The notes: generated from the letters alone by a model not told the origin. A DNA stretch of 64,000 nucleotides from an uncultured delta proteobacterium (GCA_963775425.1 CAVZJB010000017.1:192001-256000), one strand, 5' to 3'; positions 976-15,437 are shown, counted from the first letter of the stretch. Translations and numbers: made by a program.

Positions 976-1959
976 GTGAGCCTGAACATGGACGCTCTTC
1001 GCATCGACACCAAGGCCACGGCCGACGCCATCGCCGAGCGCATGCGCGGCATCGTCTCCGACGTCCTCAAGAAGCGCGGCATCGTCGTCGGGTTGTCCGG
1101 CGGCATCGACTCGAGCGCCACCGCCGGGCTCGCGGTGCGCGCCCTCGGGCCCGATCGGGTCGTGGGCCTGTTGATGCCGGAGAGCGAGAGCGCCGACGAG
1201 ACGCTCGGCATCTCGCAGCGCGTGGGCGACGCGCTCGGCATCGAGACGATCCACGAGGACATCACGCCCATCCTTCGATCGGTGCGCGCCTACGAGCGCA
1301 GGGACACCGCCATCGCGCGCTGCGTCCCGGGTTACGGCCCCGGGTGGAAGAGCAAGATCGTGCTGCCGAACCTCCTCGAGAGCGACGCGCTGCGCTTCTA
1401 CTCGGTGGTGGCCAGGAGCCCGGACGGTGCGGTGTCGCGGACGCGCTTGAGCCCGGCCGCGTACCTGGAGGTGGTGGCGGCCACCAACTTCAAGCAGCGC
1501 ATCCGCAAGATGCTCGAGTACTTCCACGCCGACCGCCTCAACTACGCGGTGGCGGGCACGCCCAACAGGCTCGAGTACGACCAGGGCTTCTTCGTGAAGG
1601 GCGGCGACGGCCTCGGCGACGTCAAGCCCATCGCGCACCTGTACAAACAGCAGGTGTACGCCGTGGCCGCGGAGGTCGGGGTGCCCGAGGAGGTGCTGCG
1701 CCGGCGGCCCACGACGGACACGTACTCGCTGCCGCAGACCCAAGACGACTTCTACTTCTCGCTCCCCTACGAGCAGATGGACCTCTGCCTCTGGGGCAAG
1801 AACCACGGCGTCGCGGCCGCCGAGGTGGCGAGCGCGCTCTCGCTGCAGGACGAGCAGATCGAGCGCGTCTACCGGGACATCGAGCAGAAGCGCCGCACCA
1901 CCCGTCCGCTGCACTTGAACGCCGTCCTCATCGAGGACGTTTTGGAGATTCATCGATGA
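976..1959 (+). CDS. nadE: NH3-dependent NAD(+) synthetase family protein
   Basis: GLSGGIDS PP-loop, NFKQRIRK, GFFVKGGDG, KPIAHLYKQQV; GGAGG at 966-970 before GTG. Confidence 0.85.
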   Translation: MSLNMDALRIDTKATADAIAERMRGIVSDVLKKRGIVVGLSGGIDSSATAGLAVRALGPDRVVGLLMPESESADETLGISQRVGDALGIETIHEDITPILRSVRAYERRDTAIARCVPGYGPGWKSKIVLPNLLESDALRFYSVVARSPDGAVSRTRLSPAAYLEVVAATNFKQRIRKMLEYFHADRLNYAVAGTPNRLEYDQGFFVKGGDGLGDVKPIAHLYKQQVYAVAAEVGVPEEVLRRRPTTDTYSLPQTQDDFYFSLPYEQMDLCLWGKNHGVAAAEVASALSLQDEQIERVYRDIEQKRRTTRPLHLNAVLIEDVLEIHR

Positions 1960-2699
1960 GCAAGCTGGCGTTGAGCGCCGCGCTCCTGGCCGGTTGCGCG
2001 GACGGCGTTGATGGCACCCAGCTCGAGCGCGTCGCACAAGCGGGCGAGCTCGGCGCGCTCGAAAACAAGCGCGTCTTCTTCGGCCACCACTCGGTGGGCC
2101 GGGACATCCTCGACGGCGTGAGCCTTGTCGCGCCCGAGGCGCACCTGTTCGTCTCCGAGGCCGCCGTCGGCGAAAACGGGCAACCCTCGCTCAAGATCGC
2201 CGACTTCGAGGAGATCGCCCTCGGCTGCGACGCGGACATCGCGCTCATGAAGCTCTGCTTCGCCGACTTCACCCCGAGCACCGACGTCGACACGCTGTTC
2301 GCCCGCTACGCCGTCGCCGTCGACCGCATCCACGCCGCGCGGCCCGAGCTGGTCGTCGTCCACGTGACGCCCGCCCTGCACACGGAGACGCGCGACCCCC
2401 GGAGCATCGTGAAGCGGGTGCTCGGCAGGCCGGTGTGGGGTGACCAGGCCAACGCCAGGCGTGCGCTCTTCGCCGAGCGCATGCGCGAGCGCTTCGCCGA
2501 CGAGCCCCTGTTCGACCTGTCGCGCATCGAGAGCACCACGCCGAGCGGTGATCGCGTGCTCACGTTGATGGACGGCGCCGCCGTCCCCGCGCTGTGGGAC
2601 GGCTACAGCACCGACGGCGGACACCTGAACAATCGGGGCAAGCGCGTCGCTGCGGCCGCCTTCCTTGACGTGCTGGAGCGCGCCGCCGAGCTCGAGTGA
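1956..2699 (+). CDS. Putative lipoprotein, SGNH/GDSL-like hydrolase
   Basis: ATG overlaps nadE stop; LLAGC lipobox; FFGHHSVG and DGGHLN motifs. Confidence 0.6.
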   Translation: MSKLALSAALLAGCADGVDGTQLERVAQAGELGALENKRVFFGHHSVGRDILDGVSLVAPEAHLFVSEAAVGENGQPSLKIADFEEIALGCDADIALMKLCFADFTPSTDVDTLFARYAVAVDRIHAARPELVVVHVTPALHTETRDPRSIVKRVLGRPVWGDQANARRALFAERMRERFADEPLFDLSRIESTTPSGDRVLTLMDGAAVPALWDGYSTDGGHLNNRGKRVAAAAFLDVLERAAELE

Positions 2700-2716
2700 G
2701 CTGCGGCCCGGTCTTG

Positions 2717-3319
2717 TCACACGAGCTTGACGGGACGCGCCGGGACGCCGAACACGACGGCCCCCGGCGCTACGTCCTTGACGACGACGCTGTTGGCGCC
2801 GACGACGGCGTCGTCGCCGATGGTGACCTCGCCGAGCACGCAGGCGCCGGCGCCGAGGTCGACCCGATCACCGATGACGGGCTTGGCGGTGTCGTCGAGG
2901 CGGGTCATGACGCCGAGGGTGGTGTTCTGGCGGATGTGCACATCGTCACCGATGGAGCGCGCGCCGAGGACCATGCCGCCGTGATGCCAGAGGCGCACGC
3001 GGCGCCCGAGCTTCACGGTGTAGCCGAGGTCGATGCCGAACCCGAGCGTGACGCCGGTGTAGAGCGCCCGATACAGCGCCGTCATCGGCGCGCGCACGGG
3101 CCTCGGCAGGTCCATGCGCCAGTTGCCGAAGCGGTGCACCGCGACGGCCCAGAAGCCGGGCTCGAGCACGCTCGAGCCGTGGGTGCGGAAGTCCTCGGCG
3201 AGCAGCGCGGGCATGGAGATGCCGTGCGGGTTTTCGTTCTTGTCGCCGTGGGGGAGCGGCGGCCGCTCCTTCGGCGACAGGGGGACGGGCTCGGGGGCAT
3301 GCGCAACGGCTGCGTCCAT
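2717..3319 (-). CDS. Serine O-acetyltransferase-like hexapeptide-repeat acyltransferase
   Basis: Hexapeptide repeats IGDDVHI/IGDRVDLGAGA/IGDDAVVGANSVV and GVPAR end. Confidence 0.85.
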   Translation of the reverse strand: MDAAVAHAPEPVPLSPKERPPLPHGDKNENPHGISMPALLAEDFRTHGSSVLEPGFWAVAVHRFGNWRMDLPRPVRAPMTALYRALYTGVTLGFGIDLGYTVKLGRRVRLWHHGGMVLGARSIGDDVHIRQNTTLGVMTRLDDTAKPVIGDRVDLGAGACVLGEVTIGDDAVVGANSVVVKDVAPGAVVFGVPARPVKLV

Positions 3320-3420
3320 GCGGAAGCTCTTTGCACGCGACGCGCCGGGAGCCGGGAGCCCGACGGCGCGGCTCGCGCCGCCGCCTGCGGTCGATTCGGC
3401 ACGGCCGCGCGGGCGCGTGC

Positions 3421-3532
3421 GCACACGGGCGCGCGACACCGCCCCGCGCGCCGCGCTCGAGAACCGCATCGCTGAATAGGGTCAGTGCCCGCACACGGGC
3501 GCACGACACCGCCCCGCGCGCCGCGCTAGAGT
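3421..3532 (+). repeat. Direct repeat of about 40 bp, two copies 70 bp apart
   Basis: gcacacgggcgc[g/a]cgacaccgccccgcgcgccgcgct at 3421 and 3491. Confidence 0.9.
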
Positions 3533-10676: not shown

Positions 10677-10790
10677 ACGGCCCCCTTGTCTTCGGCGAGC
10701 GACGCTGCAGCAGGCGTGCCTCCAGTTGCGCGGACCGCACCGGCGTCGTACCCGGGCGGTCGTGTTCCTCGAGAACCGAACGGTGACGCC

Positions 10791-11483
10791 GTGAAGATCC
10801 CCTCCTCCTGGACCGCGGCTGTCGGCGCCGAGTTGGACAAGCCGTACTTCCGCTCGCTCTCCGCGTTCCTCGACACCGAGCGCGCGCACAAGACCGTGTT
10901 CCCGCCGGCGAGAGACGTGTTCCGCGCCCTCGAGGTCACGCCGTTTGCCGACGTGCGCGTGCTGCTCCTCGGGCAGGACCCGTACCACGACGACGGCCAG
11001 GCGCATGGCCTGTGCTTCTCGGTGAAGCCGCCCACCCGGCCGCCGCCGTCGTTGAAGAACATCTTCAAGGAGCTGCAGACAGACCTCGGCTGCACGCCGC
11101 CCGAGCACGGCGATCTCACGGCGTGGGCGCGCCAGGGCGTGCTGCTGTTGAACGCGGTGCTCACCGTCGAGGCCCACCGCGCCAACTCCCACAAGGGCAA
11201 GGGTTGGGAGACGTTCACCGACGCCGTCATCGCCAGCCTGAACGCGCGGGAGACGCCGCTCGTCTTCTGCCTCTGGGGCGCGTACGCGCGCAAGAAGGCC
11301 AAGCTCGTCGACACCTCGCGCCACACCGTCATCGAGGGCGCGCACCCGTCGCCGCTGTCGATGAAGAAGTTCTTCGGCAGCAAGCCGTTCTCCGCAATCA
11401 ACGGGGCCCTCGCCGCCCAAGGACACCAGCCCATCACGTGGCAACTGGACGCACGGCCCCTCTCCCCGGTCGCGCACTCGTGA
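10791..11483 (+). CDS. ung: Uracil-DNA glycosylase, family 1
   Basis: GQDPYH, AHGLCFSV, PPPSLKNI, QGVLLLN, HPSPLS all intact. Confidence 0.96.
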   Translation: MKIPSSWTAAVGAELDKPYFRSLSAFLDTERAHKTVFPPARDVFRALEVTPFADVRVLLLGQDPYHDDGQAHGLCFSVKPPTRPPPSLKNIFKELQTDLGCTPPEHGDLTAWARQGVLLLNAVLTVEAHRANSHKGKGWETFTDAVIASLNARETPLVFCLWGAYARKKAKLVDTSRHTVIEGAHPSPLSMKKFFGSKPFSAINGALAAQGHQPITWQLDARPLSPVAHS

Positions 11484-13057
11484 GCGCCGCCGACCCCACC
11501 GATACGCTCGAGCTCACGCCGTTGTTCGACGGCGGCGGCGAGCCCTGGCTTCCCCTGTTGAAGCCCGTCATCGAGAAGCAACGCGACGCGGGCGACTTCA
11601 TCGGCCCCGGGCGCGACAAGGGCATCGTGCCCGTGCGCGAGCTGACGTTCCAGGCGCTCAAGCCCAACCCGCCCGGCAAGTGGCGCGTGGTGATCTTCGG
11701 GCAGAACCCGTACCCGCGCGTGGAGTCGGCGACGGGCATCGCCATGTTCGACAACGCCTTCGCCGACTGGAAGGAACCCCAGTTCGGCAAGGTCACCTCC
11801 ATCCGCTGCATCATCAAAGCGGCGTGCATGAACAAGCTCGGCATCGAGAAGGCCACCTCCACCGCCGCCATCCGGTCGCTCCTCGCCAAAAACGACGTCG
11901 TCACGCCGCCCCAGTGGTTCCAGGCCATGCTCACCCAGGGCGTGCTCTTGTTGAACGCTGCGCTCACCGCGAGCAGCGACAACGCGGTGTCCACCTCGCG
12001 CCACACGAGCTTCTGGAAGCCCGTCGTGGAGGCGGTGGTCACCGAGATCCTGCGCGCCAAGCACGAACAGAAGGAGGGTGTGGTCTTCGCCTGGTGGGGC
12101 GCGCACGCAAAGCTCCTGCGCGCCATGGTGGACAAGATCGCGCCGCGGTTCCCCGACGCCGTCGTCCGCCACGTCGACCACTGCAACCCCGCGGCGCAGG
12201 GGGACATGTTCTGCAACAAGGACCACTTCGGCGAGATCAACGCGGCGCTGTCGTCGCTGTCGATGAAGCCCGTGGACTGGCTGCCGGTGCAGGGCGGTGA
12301 CCTCGGCGCAGGCCAGGACGAGCACAAGCGCCTCGGCGACTTCATCGAGAGCACGCGCGAGCTGCACAAGCTCTACCTCGAGCGTCTCCAGGGCGTCGGC
12401 GACGAGCAGCTCGAGGAGCTCGAGGCCATCACGGGCCTCGCCACGCTCTCCGTCCCCACGTTGCCGGCGGCGGTGGAGCCGCTCCTCGCGCTGTTCCCCG
12501 GGCTCAAGCTGTTCGCGAAGAAGGCGGCGGAGCGCGCGCCGGAGCTGTTGAAGGCGGCGGCGGTGCCCGGGCTCACCGCCGACGAGGTGGGCGCGCTCTT
12601 CCTGTACACGACGGAGTCGCCGCTGTACCGCTCGCTGAACGCCGCGCTTCGCGACAAGAGCCGCGCGAAGGCGGAGCCGTGGCACGGCTACCTGCGGTTG
12701 TTCCTGAGCGCCCATGACAAGCTCGAGCGGCGCAACGAGAGCCTCTGGCGCGGCGTGCACAAGGACCTGCGCAAGGAGTACCCCACGGGCCGCACCGTCA
12801 CGTGGTGGGGCGTGTCGTCATGCACGACCAAGCTGGCGGTGGCCAAGGGCTTCCTCGGCCAGAAGGGCAAGCGGATGCTGTTCGAGGTCAAGCCCAGGAG
12901 CGCCGTGAGCATCCGCGCGTTCTCGGCGTTCACCGGTGAAGAGGAGCTCGTGTTGGCCCCCGGCACGAGCTTCTCCGTCGTCGACGTCGCCCCCGGCGAC
13001 GACGGCCTCGTTCACGTGAAGCTCGAGGAGCTCGAGCAGGAAAGGCTCATCCGCTGA
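11480..13057 (+). CDS. UDG-like domain fused to C-terminal R-S-E clade ADP-ribosyltransferase
   Basis: GQNPY (11699), QGVLLLN, FAWWG, HCNP (12179); then LYT..LYRSLNAALR, LWRG (R 12749), SSCT (12815), EEELVLAPGT (12938); GTGA overlap with ung stop. Confidence 0.85.
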   Translation: MSAADPTDTLELTPLFDGGGEPWLPLLKPVIEKQRDAGDFIGPGRDKGIVPVRELTFQALKPNPPGKWRVVIFGQNPYPRVESATGIAMFDNAFADWKEPQFGKVTSIRCIIKAACMNKLGIEKATSTAAIRSLLAKNDVVTPPQWFQAMLTQGVLLLNAALTASSDNAVSTSRHTSFWKPVVEAVVTEILRAKHEQKEGVVFAWWGAHAKLLRAMVDKIAPRFPDAVVRHVDHCNPAAQGDMFCNKDHFGEINAALSSLSMKPVDWLPVQGGDLGAGQDEHKRLGDFIESTRELHKLYLERLQGVGDEQLEELEAITGLATLSVPTLPAAVEPLLALFPGLKLFAKKAAERAPELLKAAAVPGLTADEVGALFLYTTESPLYRSLNAALRDKSRAKAEPWHGYLRLFLSAHDKLERRNESLWRGVHKDLRKEYPTGRTVTWWGVSSCTTKLAVAKGFLGQKGKRMLFEVKPRSAVSIRAFSAFTGEEELVLAPGTSFSVVDVAPGDDGLVHVKLEELEQERLIR

Positions 13058-14385
13058 TGCAGCTCCCCAGCTTTCTCCGCCCCCTCCCCGACGCTCCACG
13101 CATCGCCGACGCCCAGCGCGCGGACAAGGCCTTTCGCTCCACGCGCATCGGCATCCTGGTGGCGCTCACCATCGTCTACGGCTTCTTCTACACGTGCCGC
13201 ATCGGCCTCTCCGTCGTCAAGAAGCCGCTGCTTGACGCCGGCATCTTCAACGCCACGGAGCTCGGCCAGATCGGCGCCTGCCTGTTGTGGGGCTACGCCC
13301 TCGGCAAGCTCATCAACGGCGTGTTCGCCGATCGCGTGAACGTCTCGCGCTTCATCCCCCTCGGCCTGGCGCTCTCCGCGGTGGCCAACCTGGCCATGGG
13401 CAGCAACTCGCTGTTCGTCGTCGCGTGCCTGTTGTGGGTGGTGAACGGCCTGTGCCAGGGCGTCGGCGCCACGGCGAGCGTGGTGAGCCTCACGCAGTGG
13501 TTCTCCGGCAGCGAGCGCGGGCGCGTATACGGCATCTGGAGCGCGGCGCACTCCGTCGGCGAGGGCATGACCTTCTTCGGGACCTCCGCGCTCGTCGCCG
13601 CCATGGGTTGGCGCGCGGGCTTCCTCGGGCCCGGCGGCGTCTGCCTCGTCATCGCGTGCGGCGCCGCGCTCGTGTTGAAGGACCGCCCGCAGGCGTACGG
13701 CCTGCCGCCCGTGTCGGACTGGAAGGGCGAGCCGCACGAGGAGAAGTCCGCGTCGACGCGCGCGGCCCAGCTCGAGGTGGTGAAGAACCCGGCCATCTGG
13801 GTCTGCGCCATCGCGTCCGCGCTCATGTACGTGTCGCGCTACGCGGTGAACAACTGGGGCGTGCTCTACCTGCAGGAGGCGCGCGGCTACACCCTCATCG
13901 AGGCGGGCAGCATCGTCGGCATCAACACCATCGCCGGCTTCATCGGCTCCGCCGCCTACGGGTTCATCTCCGACCTCGGCTTCAAGGGGCGCCGGCCGCC
14001 CGCCACGTTCCTCTTCGGGTTCGTCGAGGTTCTCGCGCTCTTCGTGATCTACTACGGGCCCAGGAGCACCGTGCTGTTGTCGGTGGCGTTCTTCGTCTAC
14101 GGGTTCACGATGTCGGGCATCCTCGCGGTGCTCGGCGGACTGTTCGCCGTGGACCTGTCGTCCAAGCGGGCCGCGGGCATGGCCATGGGCTTCGTGGGCT
14201 TCATCTCGTACGTCGGCGCCACCGCGCAGGACCTCGTGTCGGGCTACCTCATCGACCTCGGCACCCACACGGTGAACGGCGTGAAGCACATCGACTTCAC
14301 CATCCCCATCATCGGCTGGGTGGGGGCGTCGGTGCTGAGCATGCTGCTGGCGGCCACCCTCTGGAAGGTCCGCACCAGGGAGTGA
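13057..14385 (+). CDS. MFS transporter, OPA family (GlpT/UhpC-like, organophosphate)
   Basis: YGFFYTCR, WFSGSERG..WSAAHSVG, YVSRYAVNNW; about 12 TM helices. Confidence 0.88.
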   Translation: MQLPSFLRPLPDAPRIADAQRADKAFRSTRIGILVALTIVYGFFYTCRIGLSVVKKPLLDAGIFNATELGQIGACLLWGYALGKLINGVFADRVNVSRFIPLGLALSAVANLAMGSNSLFVVACLLWVVNGLCQGVGATASVVSLTQWFSGSERGRVYGIWSAAHSVGEGMTFFGTSALVAAMGWRAGFLGPGGVCLVIACGAALVLKDRPQAYGLPPVSDWKGEPHEEKSASTRAAQLEVVKNPAIWVCAIASALMYVSRYAVNNWGVLYLQEARGYTLIEAGSIVGINTIAGFIGSAAYGFISDLGFKGRRPPATFLFGFVEVLALFVIYYGPRSTVLLSVAFFVYGFTMSGILAVLGGLFAVDLSSKRAAGMAMGFVGFISYVGATAQDLVSGYLIDLGTHTVNGVKHIDFTIPIIGWVGASVLSMLLAATLWKVRTRE

Positions 14386-14441: not shown

Positions 14442-15437
14442 ATGAAGAAGCTGTTGCTCCTCGGGGCCGGCCGCATCGGCCAGGTCCACGCGCGAAACGT
14501 CCTCGCGAGCGGCGCCGCTCGCCTGGTGGGCGTCGTCGACGTCAACCGCGCCGCCGCCGAAGCGCTCGCCGAGGCCACGGGCGCGCGCGTGTTCGACAGC
14601 GCCGACGCCGCCCTCGACACCGCCGACGTGCAAGGCGTGATGATCTGCACGTCCACGGATACGCACGTCGACATGATCCTCAAAGCGGCGGCGCGCACGC
14701 TCCCGGTGTTCTGCGAGAAGCCCGTCGACCTGGCCATGGCGAAGGTGCAGCGCTGCCTCGCGGAGGTGAAGTCCGCCGGCGTCCCGTTGCTGATGGGCTT
14801 CAACCGCCGCTTCGACCCGAGCTTCAAGTCGCTGCACGACCGCCTGCGCGAGATCGGCTCCGTGGAGGCCGTGGCCATCACGAGCCGCGACCCGCAGCCG
14901 CCGCCGCCGGCGTACGTGAAGACGTCCGGCGGCATCTTCCGCGACATGATGATCCACGACCTCGACATGGCCCGCTTCCTCCTCGGCGACGAGCCCGTCG
15001 AGGTCTTCGCCACCGGCGCCGCCCTCGTCGATCCCGAGATCGGCAAGGCCGGCGACGTCGACACCGCCACGGTGGTGCTGCGCACCGCGCGCGGCGCCAT
15101 GGTCACCATCCACAACAGCCGCCGCGCGGTCTACGGCTACGACCAACGCATCGAGGTCTTCGGCGAGAAGGGTGCGCTGTTCGCAGGCAACCCCACGCCC
15201 ACCACGGTGGTCAGGCTCGGCGCCGACGGCGCCGTCGGCGACAAGCCGCTGCACTTCTTCCTCGAGCGCTACGCCGACGCCTACCGCGCCGAGCTCGCCC
15301 ACTTCCTCGACGTCATCGACGGGAAGGCCGCGCCGCTCGTGACCGGCGAAGACGGCCGCCGCGCGCTCGCCCTGGCCGACGCGTGCGAGGCCTCGTTGCG
15401 CTCGAAGAGCGCCGTGGCCGTCGGGGTGTCGTCGTGA
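14442..15437 (+). CDS. iolG: Inositol 2-dehydrogenase
   Basis: GAGRIG, CEKP, GFNRRFDP, GGIFRDMMIHDLD, YGYDQRIE. Confidence 0.92.
   Translation: MKKLLLLGAGRIGQVHARNVLASGAARLVGVVDVNRAAAEALAEATGARVFDSADAALDTADVQGVMICTSTDTHVDMILKAAARTLPVFCEKPVDLAMAKVQRCLAEVKSAGVPLLMGFNRRFDPSFKSLHDRLREIGSVEAVAITSRDPQPPPPAYVKTSGGIFRDMMIHDLDMARFLLGDEPVEVFATGAALVDPEIGKAGDVDTATVVLRTARGAMVTIHNSRRAVYGYDQRIEVFGEKGALFAGNPTPTTVVRLGADGAVGDKPLHFFLERYADAYRAELAHFLDVIDGKAAPLVTGEDGRRALALADACEASLRSKSAVAVGVSS

Follow-up and report, generated by a model that had tools for sequence, protein, structure and literature searches.

A uracil-DNA glycosylase-like domain fused to an R-S-ExE ADP-ribosyltransferase: a candidate DNA-tethered reader-writer family with a macrodomain partner

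The window analysed here is a 64,000-nucleotide stretch of the genome of an uncultured delta proteobacterium (GCA_963775425.1, CAVZJB010000017.1:192001-256000), and it encodes on its plus strand a 525-aa fusion protein (P0002; 11480..13057, +) in which domain searches, an AlphaFold2 (AF2) model and Foldseek comparisons place a uracil-DNA glycosylase (UDG)-like domain in front of an ADP-ribosyltransferase (ART) domain. The best reading of the evidence assigns the protein to a large family of 'reader-writer' enzymes that act in the cytoplasm. Its specific role is proposed with a confidence a little short of even: a DNA- or lesion-tethered mono-ART that takes part in reversible, damage-linked ADP-ribosylation, the mark being erased by a damage-induced macrodomain. 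An earlier note on this DNA, which had pointed to a uracil or modified-DNA sensing system, contained neither the Asp-to-Asn change in the UDG-like domain, nor the macrodomain partner with its DNA-damage promoter, nor the PARP-macro operon found elsewhere in the genome.

Results

Architecture of the fusion protein

The fusion protein consists of three parts: a UDG-like domain (residues 1-275; 11480..12304, +), which has a family-1 fold and, like Nitratifractor salsuginis UNG, a helical insert; a helical linker (residues ~279-360; 12314..12559, +); and an ART domain of the R-S-ExE class (residues 363-520; 12566..13039, +), assigned through Pfam PF01129 and Foldseek. In the AF2 model, built on a 26-sequence alignment (mean pLDDT 86.3, pTM 0.58), the linker forms helices at 279-304, 328-338 and 342-360, with a low-confidence hinge at 305-327 in which the pLDDT drops below 50 at residues 305-309. 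The N-terminal helix of the linker travels with the ART, as ART-module matches in other proteins begin at residues ~297-303. The predicted lack of a signal peptide, already proposed in the earlier note, agrees with an N-terminus (VSAADPTDTLELTPLF) in which inspection of the sequence finds no hydrophobic stretch. The fusion gene is present in a single copy in the source genome.

The UDG-like domain keeps the fold and loses the catalytic Asp

The N-half had been described as a second family-1-like UDG fold, and both sequence and structure bear this out. Of the solved structures, the 263-aa Nitratifractor salsuginis UNG matches best (PDB 5x3g, E 2e-14), and the UDG alpha/beta fold of the AF2 model matches 5x3g/5x3h with a TM of 0.78-0.82 (Foldseek E 2e-10 to 5e-10), followed by many other UNGs. 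Against the ung models the N-half reaches E 9e-22 yet remains below their cut-offs (best NF003592, 77.9 bits against a cut-off of 162), and it does not attain the Pfam UDG cut-off (17.7 against 24.3).

Conservation was followed in two alignments, one of 22 sequences and one of 26 diverse relatives down to 39% identity. Motif A reads GQNPYP (11699..11716, +), in which pairwise alignment puts Asn76 in the place of the water-activating Asp and Pro79 in that of His. This form is kept in 119/121 homologues. At the Asp position, 20 of the 26 diverse relatives have N, five have S, one has A and none has D. The uracil-specifying Asn (N159) is retained within GVLLLNA (11939..11959, +), which aligns with the LLLN motif of the adjacent ung. 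Pro77 and Asn159 are invariant in both alignments, and Gln75 and Tyr78 are nearly so; with Gln75, Tyr78 and Asn159, part of the base pocket is kept. The motif B region, HVDHCNPAAQG (12170..12202, +), is the counterpart of HPSPLS in the pairwise and PDB alignments; its His (His234) is present here and in 18/26 relatives and varies in distant ones, while N236 is nearly invariant and the PAA that follows is invariant. The intercalating (wedge) Leu of HPSPLS aligns with an Ala, and the uracil-stacking Phe aligns with Met89.

Because the water-activating Asp is lost, the UDG-like domain, judged by its motifs, is not a canonical glycosylase; a reader function is more likely than an enzymatic one, and the UDG-type nucleotide-flipping pocket appears to be retained. 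UNG mutants in which this Asp is changed to Asn bind uracil-DNA and hardly cut it. MUG/TDG enzymes use an Asn in slow catalysis, so that slow excision by the UDG-like domain is conceivable.

The ART domain retains the R-S-ExE motifs

The C-half matches the Pfam ART family PF01129 over residues 363-520 (E 1.6e-14, 54.3 bits, gathering threshold 22.3). The NAD-binding Arg, R424, lies in LWRGV (12743..12757, +), the Ser motif with S446 and S447 in VSSCTT (12812..12829, +), and the ARTT loop, SAFTGEEE (12923..12946, +), carries an aromatic residue at its third position (F484), a Glu at its sixth (E487) and the catalytic E489, which together with E487 gives the ExE signature. R424, S446, S447, E487 and E489 are invariant in both alignments. 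Together with the ART fold recognised by Foldseek, these matches confirm the earlier description of the C-half as an ART with R, S and ExE motifs.

The fold neighbours of the ART in the AF2 model are the Vis toxin, Tre1 (TM 0.80), XopAI, C3, ART2.2 (TM 0.71) and ExoS/T; among the best 50 Foldseek matches listed, the nearest ART structures are all protein-modifying R-S-E ARTs, and no DNA-modifying ART is found. At the sequence level, NCBIfam gives a weak XopAI match (E 0.12). In the portion of PMC7827354 available, a Glu at the sixth position of the ARTT loop is paired with arginine targets and a Gln with asparagine (C3) or guanine (ScARP) targets. By its motifs the ART domain is predicted to be catalytically intact and looks active and protein-directed, and its ExE ARTT loop suggests NAD+-dependent modification of arginine. 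Mono-ADP-ribosylation is expected, as the catalytic domain is of the R-S-E and not of the H-Y-E type.

A large family with separable modules

A word-indexed protein search yields 1130 proteins at E <=0.001 among 8000 candidates scored, and, the window's own entry aside, the best 120 homologues are 57-69% identical to the fusion protein. The sources of these best homologues are Streptomyces, Nonomuraea, Micromonospora, Gemmataceae, Sandaracinus and many metagenomes, and their names are only 'ADP-ribosyltransferase domain-containing protein' or 'uracil DNA glycosylase'. An exhaustive search of representatives returns 93 cluster representatives at E <=1e-30, and a scan with one genome per species finds at least 524 encoding loci. 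The family spans Actinomycetes, Planctomycetes and Myxococcota, with ~60% identity across these three bacterial phyla, and the mean column identity of its alignment is 75%. Closer to the source, 2/10 of the family-level relatives searched carry the fusion gene. In the plasmid collection, four records cover at least 80% of the protein; two of them are chromosome-sized and the other two are large Streptomyces plasmids.

The UDG-like/ART core also occurs with additional domains. It is preceded by a VWA domain in proteins of ~1045 aa that form 40 bacterial clusters (named example Urbifossiella limnaea); the VWA domain is separated from the UDG-like one by ~300 residues that no Pfam model matches. 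In-frame N-terminal extensions of 530-613 codons, found at loci L006, L007, L013, L015, L018, L025, L026 and L030, mostly of Myxococcota type, are taken to be this VWA form. Diatoms and other protists combine a WWE domain with the core, as in a 980-aa protein of Seminavis robusta that is 44% identical over 100% of the query, and further relatives of the core are a SAM-domain protein and a marine-eukaryote transcript that holds the full core. An 862-aa metagenomic protein (P0030) fuses a histone-deacetylase-family domain (PF00850) to the core.

Each module is found on its own as well. The UDG-like module alone is fused to Ser/Thr kinases (named example the TKL kinase of Thecamonas trahens, P0190), and the ART module alone accompanies WWE/C1/ZZ, PBZ (Rotaria), LRR, PARP catalytic, tyrosine phosphatase or WW domains. 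P0190, P0196, P0144, P0205, P0208 and P0250 are eukaryotic or metagenomic relatives that reuse the two modules separately, the UDG-like one with a Ser/Thr kinase or SAM domain and the ART with a PARP catalytic, tyrosine phosphatase or, in a bdelloid rotifer, PBZ domain. The overall pattern suggests that the UDG-like and ART modules have been exchanged between bacteria and eukaryotes, and domain shuffling of this sort is what would be expected if signalling proteins combined a module for reading with one for output. The logic put forward in the earlier note, with UDG-like sensing or targeting and an ART output, fits the presence of the UDG-like module on Ser/Thr kinases and the addition of WWE or VWA domains to the core.

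A macrodomain gene is the conserved neighbour

Gene neighbourhoods were compared at the best 80 loci from other species, with flanks of up to 8 kb, and in two family-level relatives with 1.5-kb flanks. The window's arrangement, in which the fusion gene directly follows ung, had been taken for a two-gene system. A tblastn search with the window Ung finds canonical ung near the fusion gene in 0/80 loci (~8 kb) and 0/2 family-level relatives (1.5 kb), and with adjacency in 0/82 other loci, ung is rejected as a conserved partner.

ORF clustering over the 80 loci leaves a sole conserved neighbour, a gene of ~225 aa directly upstream that matches Pfam Macro (PF01661, E 3e-10). By tblastn, this macrodomain gene is adjacent in 62/80 loci, divergently oriented in 59 and co-directional in 3; the 62 comprise actinomycetes, two Gemmataceae and one metagenome-assembled genome labelled Clostridia. 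In two Streptomyces loci (L063 and L066) the co-directional macro gene ends ~80-120 nt before the fusion gene. Seven of the 18 loci that lack the neighbour are loci with the long N-terminal extension described above, and L006 alone among the extended loci has an adjacent macro. The window itself has no adjacent macrodomain gene. Among the neighbourhood links that the earlier note had thought worth seeking around homologues, the macrodomain was thus found, and linkage to ung and location in defence islands were not.

The partner macro was also modelled (pLDDT 81). Its closest structures are the yeast Ymx7/Poa1p proteins, followed by macroH2A, MacroD2, YmdB, Af1521 and DarG, the DarG macrodomains standing at ranks 11, 26 and 28 of the structural matches. 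At the sequence level, the macro has no significant match to solved structures (best PDB E 0.069).

A DNA-damage promoter motif on the macrodomain side

The in-vivo consensus of PafBC (RecA-NDp) is tGTCgg(N10)tA(N3)T in the excerpt of PMC8635444 consulted. The corresponding pattern TGTC[AG]G-N10-TA-N3-T faces the macro gene in 47/59 of the divergent intergenic regions and the fusion gene in 9/59 (eight Streptomyces and one Luedemannella). A stricter pattern, TGTCRGTG-N7-9-TAnnnT, faces the macro gene in 32/59, with a spacing of 8 in every match and mostly ~38-43 nt from the aligned macro start. Mononucleotide shuffles give a mean of 0.05-0.07 loci with the motif. In a control on real sequence from the same loci, 56 motif matches fall in 15.5 kb of intergenic DNA vs 7 in 970 kb elsewhere (3.6 vs 0.007 per kb), a density ~500-fold higher in the intergenic regions. 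An SOS box is present in 2/59 of these actinomycete intergenic regions at <=2 mismatches, and GAAC-N4-GTTC in 0/59. A precedent for this arrangement is the Streptomyces macrodomain protein SCO6735, for which passages of PMC5087735 give a RecA-NDp promoter and a 5-fold induction by UV. The macro and fusion genes are accordingly predicted, from the promoter motif, to be damage-inducible.

The macrodomain and a PARP in the source genome

The source genome encodes a macro of the partner type at a separate site. This macro is the genome's best match to the partner macro, with 52% identity to the Micromonospora partner and as much as 62% to those of other loci; the second-best macro of the genome reaches only 27%. 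The gene lies on contig C4, 12 nt 3' of a 472-aa WGR-PARP_reg-PARP gene (PARP 2107-3525(-) and macro 1372-2094(-) in L081, which corresponds to G000:C4, ~23.2-25.3 kb). The PARP-macro pair recurs in 7/10 of the family-level relatives searched, at 72-85% identity. The macro subfamily therefore accompanies WGR-PARP in the source lineage and the UDG-like ART in others, a distribution that hints at a shared eraser of damage-linked ADP-ribose marks. Another PARP-like match, a weaker one, is located at G000:C6:25821-27038. Many genomes of the same order are very small (0.3-3.4 Mb vs 8.3 Mb here), and the fusion gene, the macro and the PARP are found in none of these small genomes.

ung and the neighbouring genes of the window

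The gene upstream of the fusion gene is ung (10791..11483, +), identified from its stop-free frame, NCBIfam and Pfam matches and motifs, and it encodes a canonical family-1 uracil-DNA glycosylase of 230 aa. It scores above the cut-off in five NCBIfam equivalog models (NF003589, 309.1 bits, cut-off 223), reaches 267.2 bits against TIGR00628 (cut-off 185.75), matches Pfam UDG at E 1.2e-16 and keeps all its catalytic motifs, GQDPYH (residue 61), LLLN (118) and HPSPLS (185). The sequence reads GTGA at 11480..11483 (+), where the GTG start of the fusion gene overlaps the TGA stop of ung; the earlier account of an intact family-1 ung overlapping a 525-aa gene in this way is correct in coordinates and frames. 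The GTG start is supported, since homologues begin ~5-15 residues from the conserved DPxDxLxL N-terminus.

Downstream lies an MFS transporter gene (13057..14385, +; Pfam MFS_1 E 1.1e-43), given as context only and not claimed as part of the system. Window positions 13055-13059 read TGATG, in which the ATG of the MFS gene and the TGA of the fusion gene have one base in common. A Gfo/Idh/MocA oxidoreductase gene follows the MFS gene at 14442-15437. As ung, the fusion gene and the MFS gene overlap at their stop and start codons, they are packed as if they formed one operon, and the fusion gene is probably co-translated with ung in the source genome.

A second canonical ung is located on another contig of the genome (G000:C9:389046-389660, L088/L110; 230 bits, above the cut-off), so that the genome has two ung paralogues, 47% identical to each other, of which one is coupled to the fusion gene. 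Composition gives no sign of horizontal transfer, as the GC3 values of ung (0.944) and of the fusion gene (0.96) resemble those of the neighbours. At the loci of ung orthologues in relatives, none of the window's flanking genes lies within 1.5 kb, and the insertion event is therefore not reconstructable.

An inverted repeat, GTTC-CTCGA-GAAC, is located at 10764-10776, 15 nt 5' of the ung start, and is unlike the SOS-type boxes of lexA and recA in this genome. The region upstream of lexA (L111, ~1428-1476) holds a CTGT-N8-ACAG palindrome, CTGTACCCATGTACAG, and that upstream of recA (L112, ~2560-2580) a GAAC-N4-GTTC palindrome, TGAACAAGTGTTCA; as the two differ, two SOS-box styles occur in one genome.

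Discussion

Proposed mechanism and points against it

In the proposed mechanism, the UDG-like domain would bind a DNA lesion, which may be a uracil, another flipped pyrimidine or an abasic site, with nil or very slow excision, and would hold the tethered ART at that lesion on the DNA. With NAD+ as substrate, the ART would attach a single ADP-ribose to a neighbouring target; the ExE ARTT loop and the fold neighbours make an arginine the most likely acceptor, either on a repair or replication protein or on the enzyme itself. The macrodomain hydrolase would remove the mark. Taken as a whole, the system would be the base-lesion counterpart of PARP-type damage signalling. In favour of this reading stand the lost catalytic Asp, the intact ART motifs, the modular reuse of both domains, the macrodomain partner and its damage-promoter motif and, in the source genome, the partner-type macro behind a WGR-PARP gene and the coupling of the fusion gene to ung, itself a DNA-repair gene. 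A broader version of the proposal is possible and is held more loosely: a PARP-like base-lesion axis that runs through bacteria and several protist lineages, in which a dead-UDG reader would recognise uracil or abasic sites, an R-S-ExE writer would modify repair or replication factors or DNA, a damage-induced macro would act as eraser, and the protist reader would be wired to WWE domains or kinases. A weak hint comes from the Streptomyces protein 'UDG-L', whose overexpression is described in part of PMC13689562 as lowering C-to-G and raising C-to-T in base editing in 2/5 replicates, the direction expected of a uracil shield and not of a glycosylase.

Several observations count against this interpretation. 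With a pTM of only 0.58, the mutual orientation of the two domains is not defined. The pocket is remodelled beyond the Asp, by Met89, the Ala at the wedge position and the variable His, so that something other than uracil, or other than DNA, may be the ligand. The chemistry of the writer and that of the eraser diverge: Arg-linked ADP-ribose is removed by ARH/DraG-type enzymes, and macrodomains, which cleave acidic-residue and base-linked ADP-ribose, are not known to cleave Arg-ADP-ribose, so that the ExE signature and the macro partner point to different chemistries. The partner is not universal, as 18/80 loci, mostly of Myxococcota type, have no adjacent macro (three of them with less than 1 kb of upstream flank). 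The source lineage shows no specific tie between macro and fusion gene: the PARP-macro pair is found in 7/10 relatives and the fusion gene in 2/10. The PafBC motif lies mostly on the eraser side (47/59) and rarely on the writer side (9/59), and upstream of ung no SOS-type box, either CTGT-N8-ACAG or GAAC-N4-GTTC, is seen by eye. Adjacency to ung is confined to this genome and is therefore given no general weight. The patchy distribution would also suit an accessory or conflict gene. Finally, no characterised member of the family was found in the literature searched, and DNA binding, the ligand and the ART target are predicted.

Alternative explanations

The alternative that survives best, though unlikely, is an anti-phage sensor-effector, in which the UDG-like domain would detect uracil or hypermodified phage DNA or would bait a phage inhibitor of UNG, the ART would then poison the cell or the phage, and the macro would serve as antitoxin or reset as in DarTG. 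UDG-superfamily glycosylases can act in phage defence. The gene is patchy and looks horizontally transferred (2/10 family relatives, ~60% identity across phyla), its variable context is like that of a self-contained cassette, and its nearest ART structures include the interbacterial or host-directed toxins Tre1, Vis and C3. The earlier note had raised defence or abortive infection, and the searches speak against it. Neither ung nor the fusion protein matches a family of PADLOC-DB v2. The four nearest genes at 35 loci, amounting to 136 ORFs (4 ORFs of ~950-1930 aa having been dropped), contain no recurrent Pfam family, TetR (5), MarR (4), methyltransferases (3) and transporters being the neighbours seen; they contain no recurrent PADLOC system either, the top family being hit by 3 ORFs and the matches being mostly generic kinase or AAA ones. 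None of 50,697 phage records has a copy covering at least 80% of the fusion protein, and 44 of them match the UDG part only. The supposed toxin also stands without an adjacent macro in 18/80 loci and in the window, its mean column identity of 75% is unusually high for a conflict gene, its protist relatives are fused to signalling domains (WWE, kinase, SAM), and the promoter motif of the macro is of the DNA-damage regulon type. The idea keeps some weight because the distribution is patchy and the ART and macro pairing resembles toxin-antitoxin logic.

Only slightly less probable, and given separate weight because of the conflict between ExE-arginine and macro chemistry, is a nucleic-acid target. 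Here the UDG-like domain would dock on DNA and the ART would modify a base (T or U at N3, G at N2), a phosphate end or an abasic site, the macro reversing the modification as DarG or TARG1 does. The dedicated eraser is indeed a macrodomain and not an ARH/DraG-type hydrolase, and the modelled partner has DarG macrodomains among its structural matches. In the parts of the literature consulted, TARG1-like macros reverse the ADP-ribosylation of uracil bases (PMC13036486), SCO6735 cleaves thymidine-linked DNA ADP-ribosylation (PMC9411070), and guanine is the target of the R-S-E group of ARTs to which pierisin, ScARP and Scabin belong (PMC7827354). The guanine-specific ScARP, however, has a Gln at the sixth ARTT position, where the family has an invariant Glu, and no DNA-targeting ART is among the best 50 Foldseek matches listed. 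On the macro side, the best matches are of Poa1p/Ymx7 and MacroD/macroH2A types and not specifically of DarG or TARG1, and the sequence shows no match to the solved SCO6735 (best PDB E 0.069). A base flipped into the UDG-like pocket would, moreover, be hidden from the tethered ART.

A bifunctional repair enzyme is improbable. The UDG-like domain would in that case still be a glycosylase, slow or of altered specificity, working through Asn or Ser, and the ART would regulate or recruit. Conservation of Gln75, Tyr78 and Asn159, the presence of His234 here and in 18/26 relatives, the deposition of the closest solved relative, the Nitratifractor protein, as a UNG, and the pairing of the fusion gene with ung in this genome are in its favour. 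It has to accommodate the absence of the catalytic Asp from 26/26 relatives, one of which has Ala there, a catalytic His that is dispensable in 8/26, the replacement of the stacking Phe and wedge Leu, and scores far below the cut-offs of the ung models. The effect of UDG-L overexpression, less and not more uracil processing, also runs against it, although this effect is not robust in the portion of PMC13689562 available.

A secreted or contact-delivered ART toxin, with the UDG-like part as carrier or immunity-related domain, is highly improbable: the closest solved ARTs are effectors and toxins and the weak XopAI match would agree with it, yet no signal peptide is visible, the domain scan finds no PAAR, Rhs, T6SS or T3SS domains, the neighbour scans find no secretion or immunity genes recurring near the fusion gene, the partner is an intracellular-type macrodomain with a DNA-damage promoter, and the family is conserved and not polymorphic.

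Relation to known systems

The lesion-tethered mono-ART proposed here resembles several known systems in part. With family-1 UNG (5x3g/5x3h) it shares the fold, the order of motifs and the Asn of LLLN, and with Nitratifractor UNG in particular a motif A of the type GQxPYP that is followed by a helical insert. Unlike family-1 UNG, the fusion family has N, S or A for the Asp, Met for Phe, Ala for Leu, a variable His and a fused ART. The arginine-specific R-S-ExE mono-ARTs (PF01129; Serratia Tre1, Vis, ART2.2, ExoS/T) are alike in the R, S-x-S and ExE motifs and the ARTT loop. The fusion protein differs from them in that it is predicted to be cytoplasmic, lies outside any secretion or toxin-delivery locus, is tethered to a UDG-like domain and has a macro partner; Tre1 pairs with a hydrolase-type immunity protein.

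The logic of a lesion-binding module, an ADP-ribosylating domain, a macro eraser and damage-linked regulation is that of the PARP1-3 sensors with their macrodomain or PARG erasers, a type to which the WGR-PARP and macro operon of the source genome also belongs, and from which the fusion protein differs in being R-S-E and not H-Y-E and in a reader presumed to recognise a base lesion and not a strand break. DarT-DarG is similar in pairing an ART gene with a macro gene, and DarG macros are found among the structural matches of the partner. The fusion family differs in its classical R-S-ExE signature, the lack of a PADLOC DarTG match, the absence of an adjacent macro from 18/80 loci and from the window, and the divergent arrangement of the genes, which is not that of a toxin-antitoxin operon; DarT itself is described in an excerpt of PMC7827354 as having neither R-S-E nor H-Y-E motifs. 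SCO6735 is likewise an actinomycete macrodomain with a RecA-NDp/PafBC promoter, and the same motif stands at the partner macro in 47/59 regions. It belongs to a different macro subfamily, and in the passages of PMC5087735 consulted no adjacent ART is described for it.

The Streptomyces 'UDG-L' (J Bacteriol 2026, PMC13689562) is, from the part of that paper available, evidently a member of the same family. It has an extra N-terminal domain in the same polypeptide, macro-like according to its annotation, which the window protein does not have. That paper holds the only mention of the family in the literature searched, in which no characterisation was found; passing mention elsewhere is possible. 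The words 'uracil', 'glycosylase' and 'UDG' are absent from two reviews (PMC8120803 and PMC9503650). The earlier suggestion that no characterised system of this kind exists thus stands as regards characterisation, and has to be qualified in that the family is large and generically annotated and that UDG-L was mentioned in 2026. Each domain is already known, as is the logic of a writer with a macro eraser. Three elements appear undescribed in the literature searched: the use of a glycosylase pseudo-enzyme to target an ART, the pairing of a UDG-like/ART protein with a macrodomain under a PafBC motif, and the kinship with WWE- and kinase-fused protist proteins.

Implications

Whatever the mechanism, a large and conserved family carries a generic or misleading ('uracil DNA glycosylase') annotation. 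A tight, non-excising binder of uracil or abasic sites could serve as a reagent. If the proposal is true, the UDG-like domain would be the first glycosylase pseudo-enzyme to serve as a lesion reader for a post-translational writer, and ADP-ribosyl signalling at DNA damage would extend beyond PARP-type enzymes and strand breaks. The PafBC regulon of actinomycetes would gain a directly testable writer-eraser pair. In Streptomyces and the antibiotic producers related to it, where the family is common, it may affect the mutation spectrum and the products of cytosine base editing, a direction in which one published hint points.

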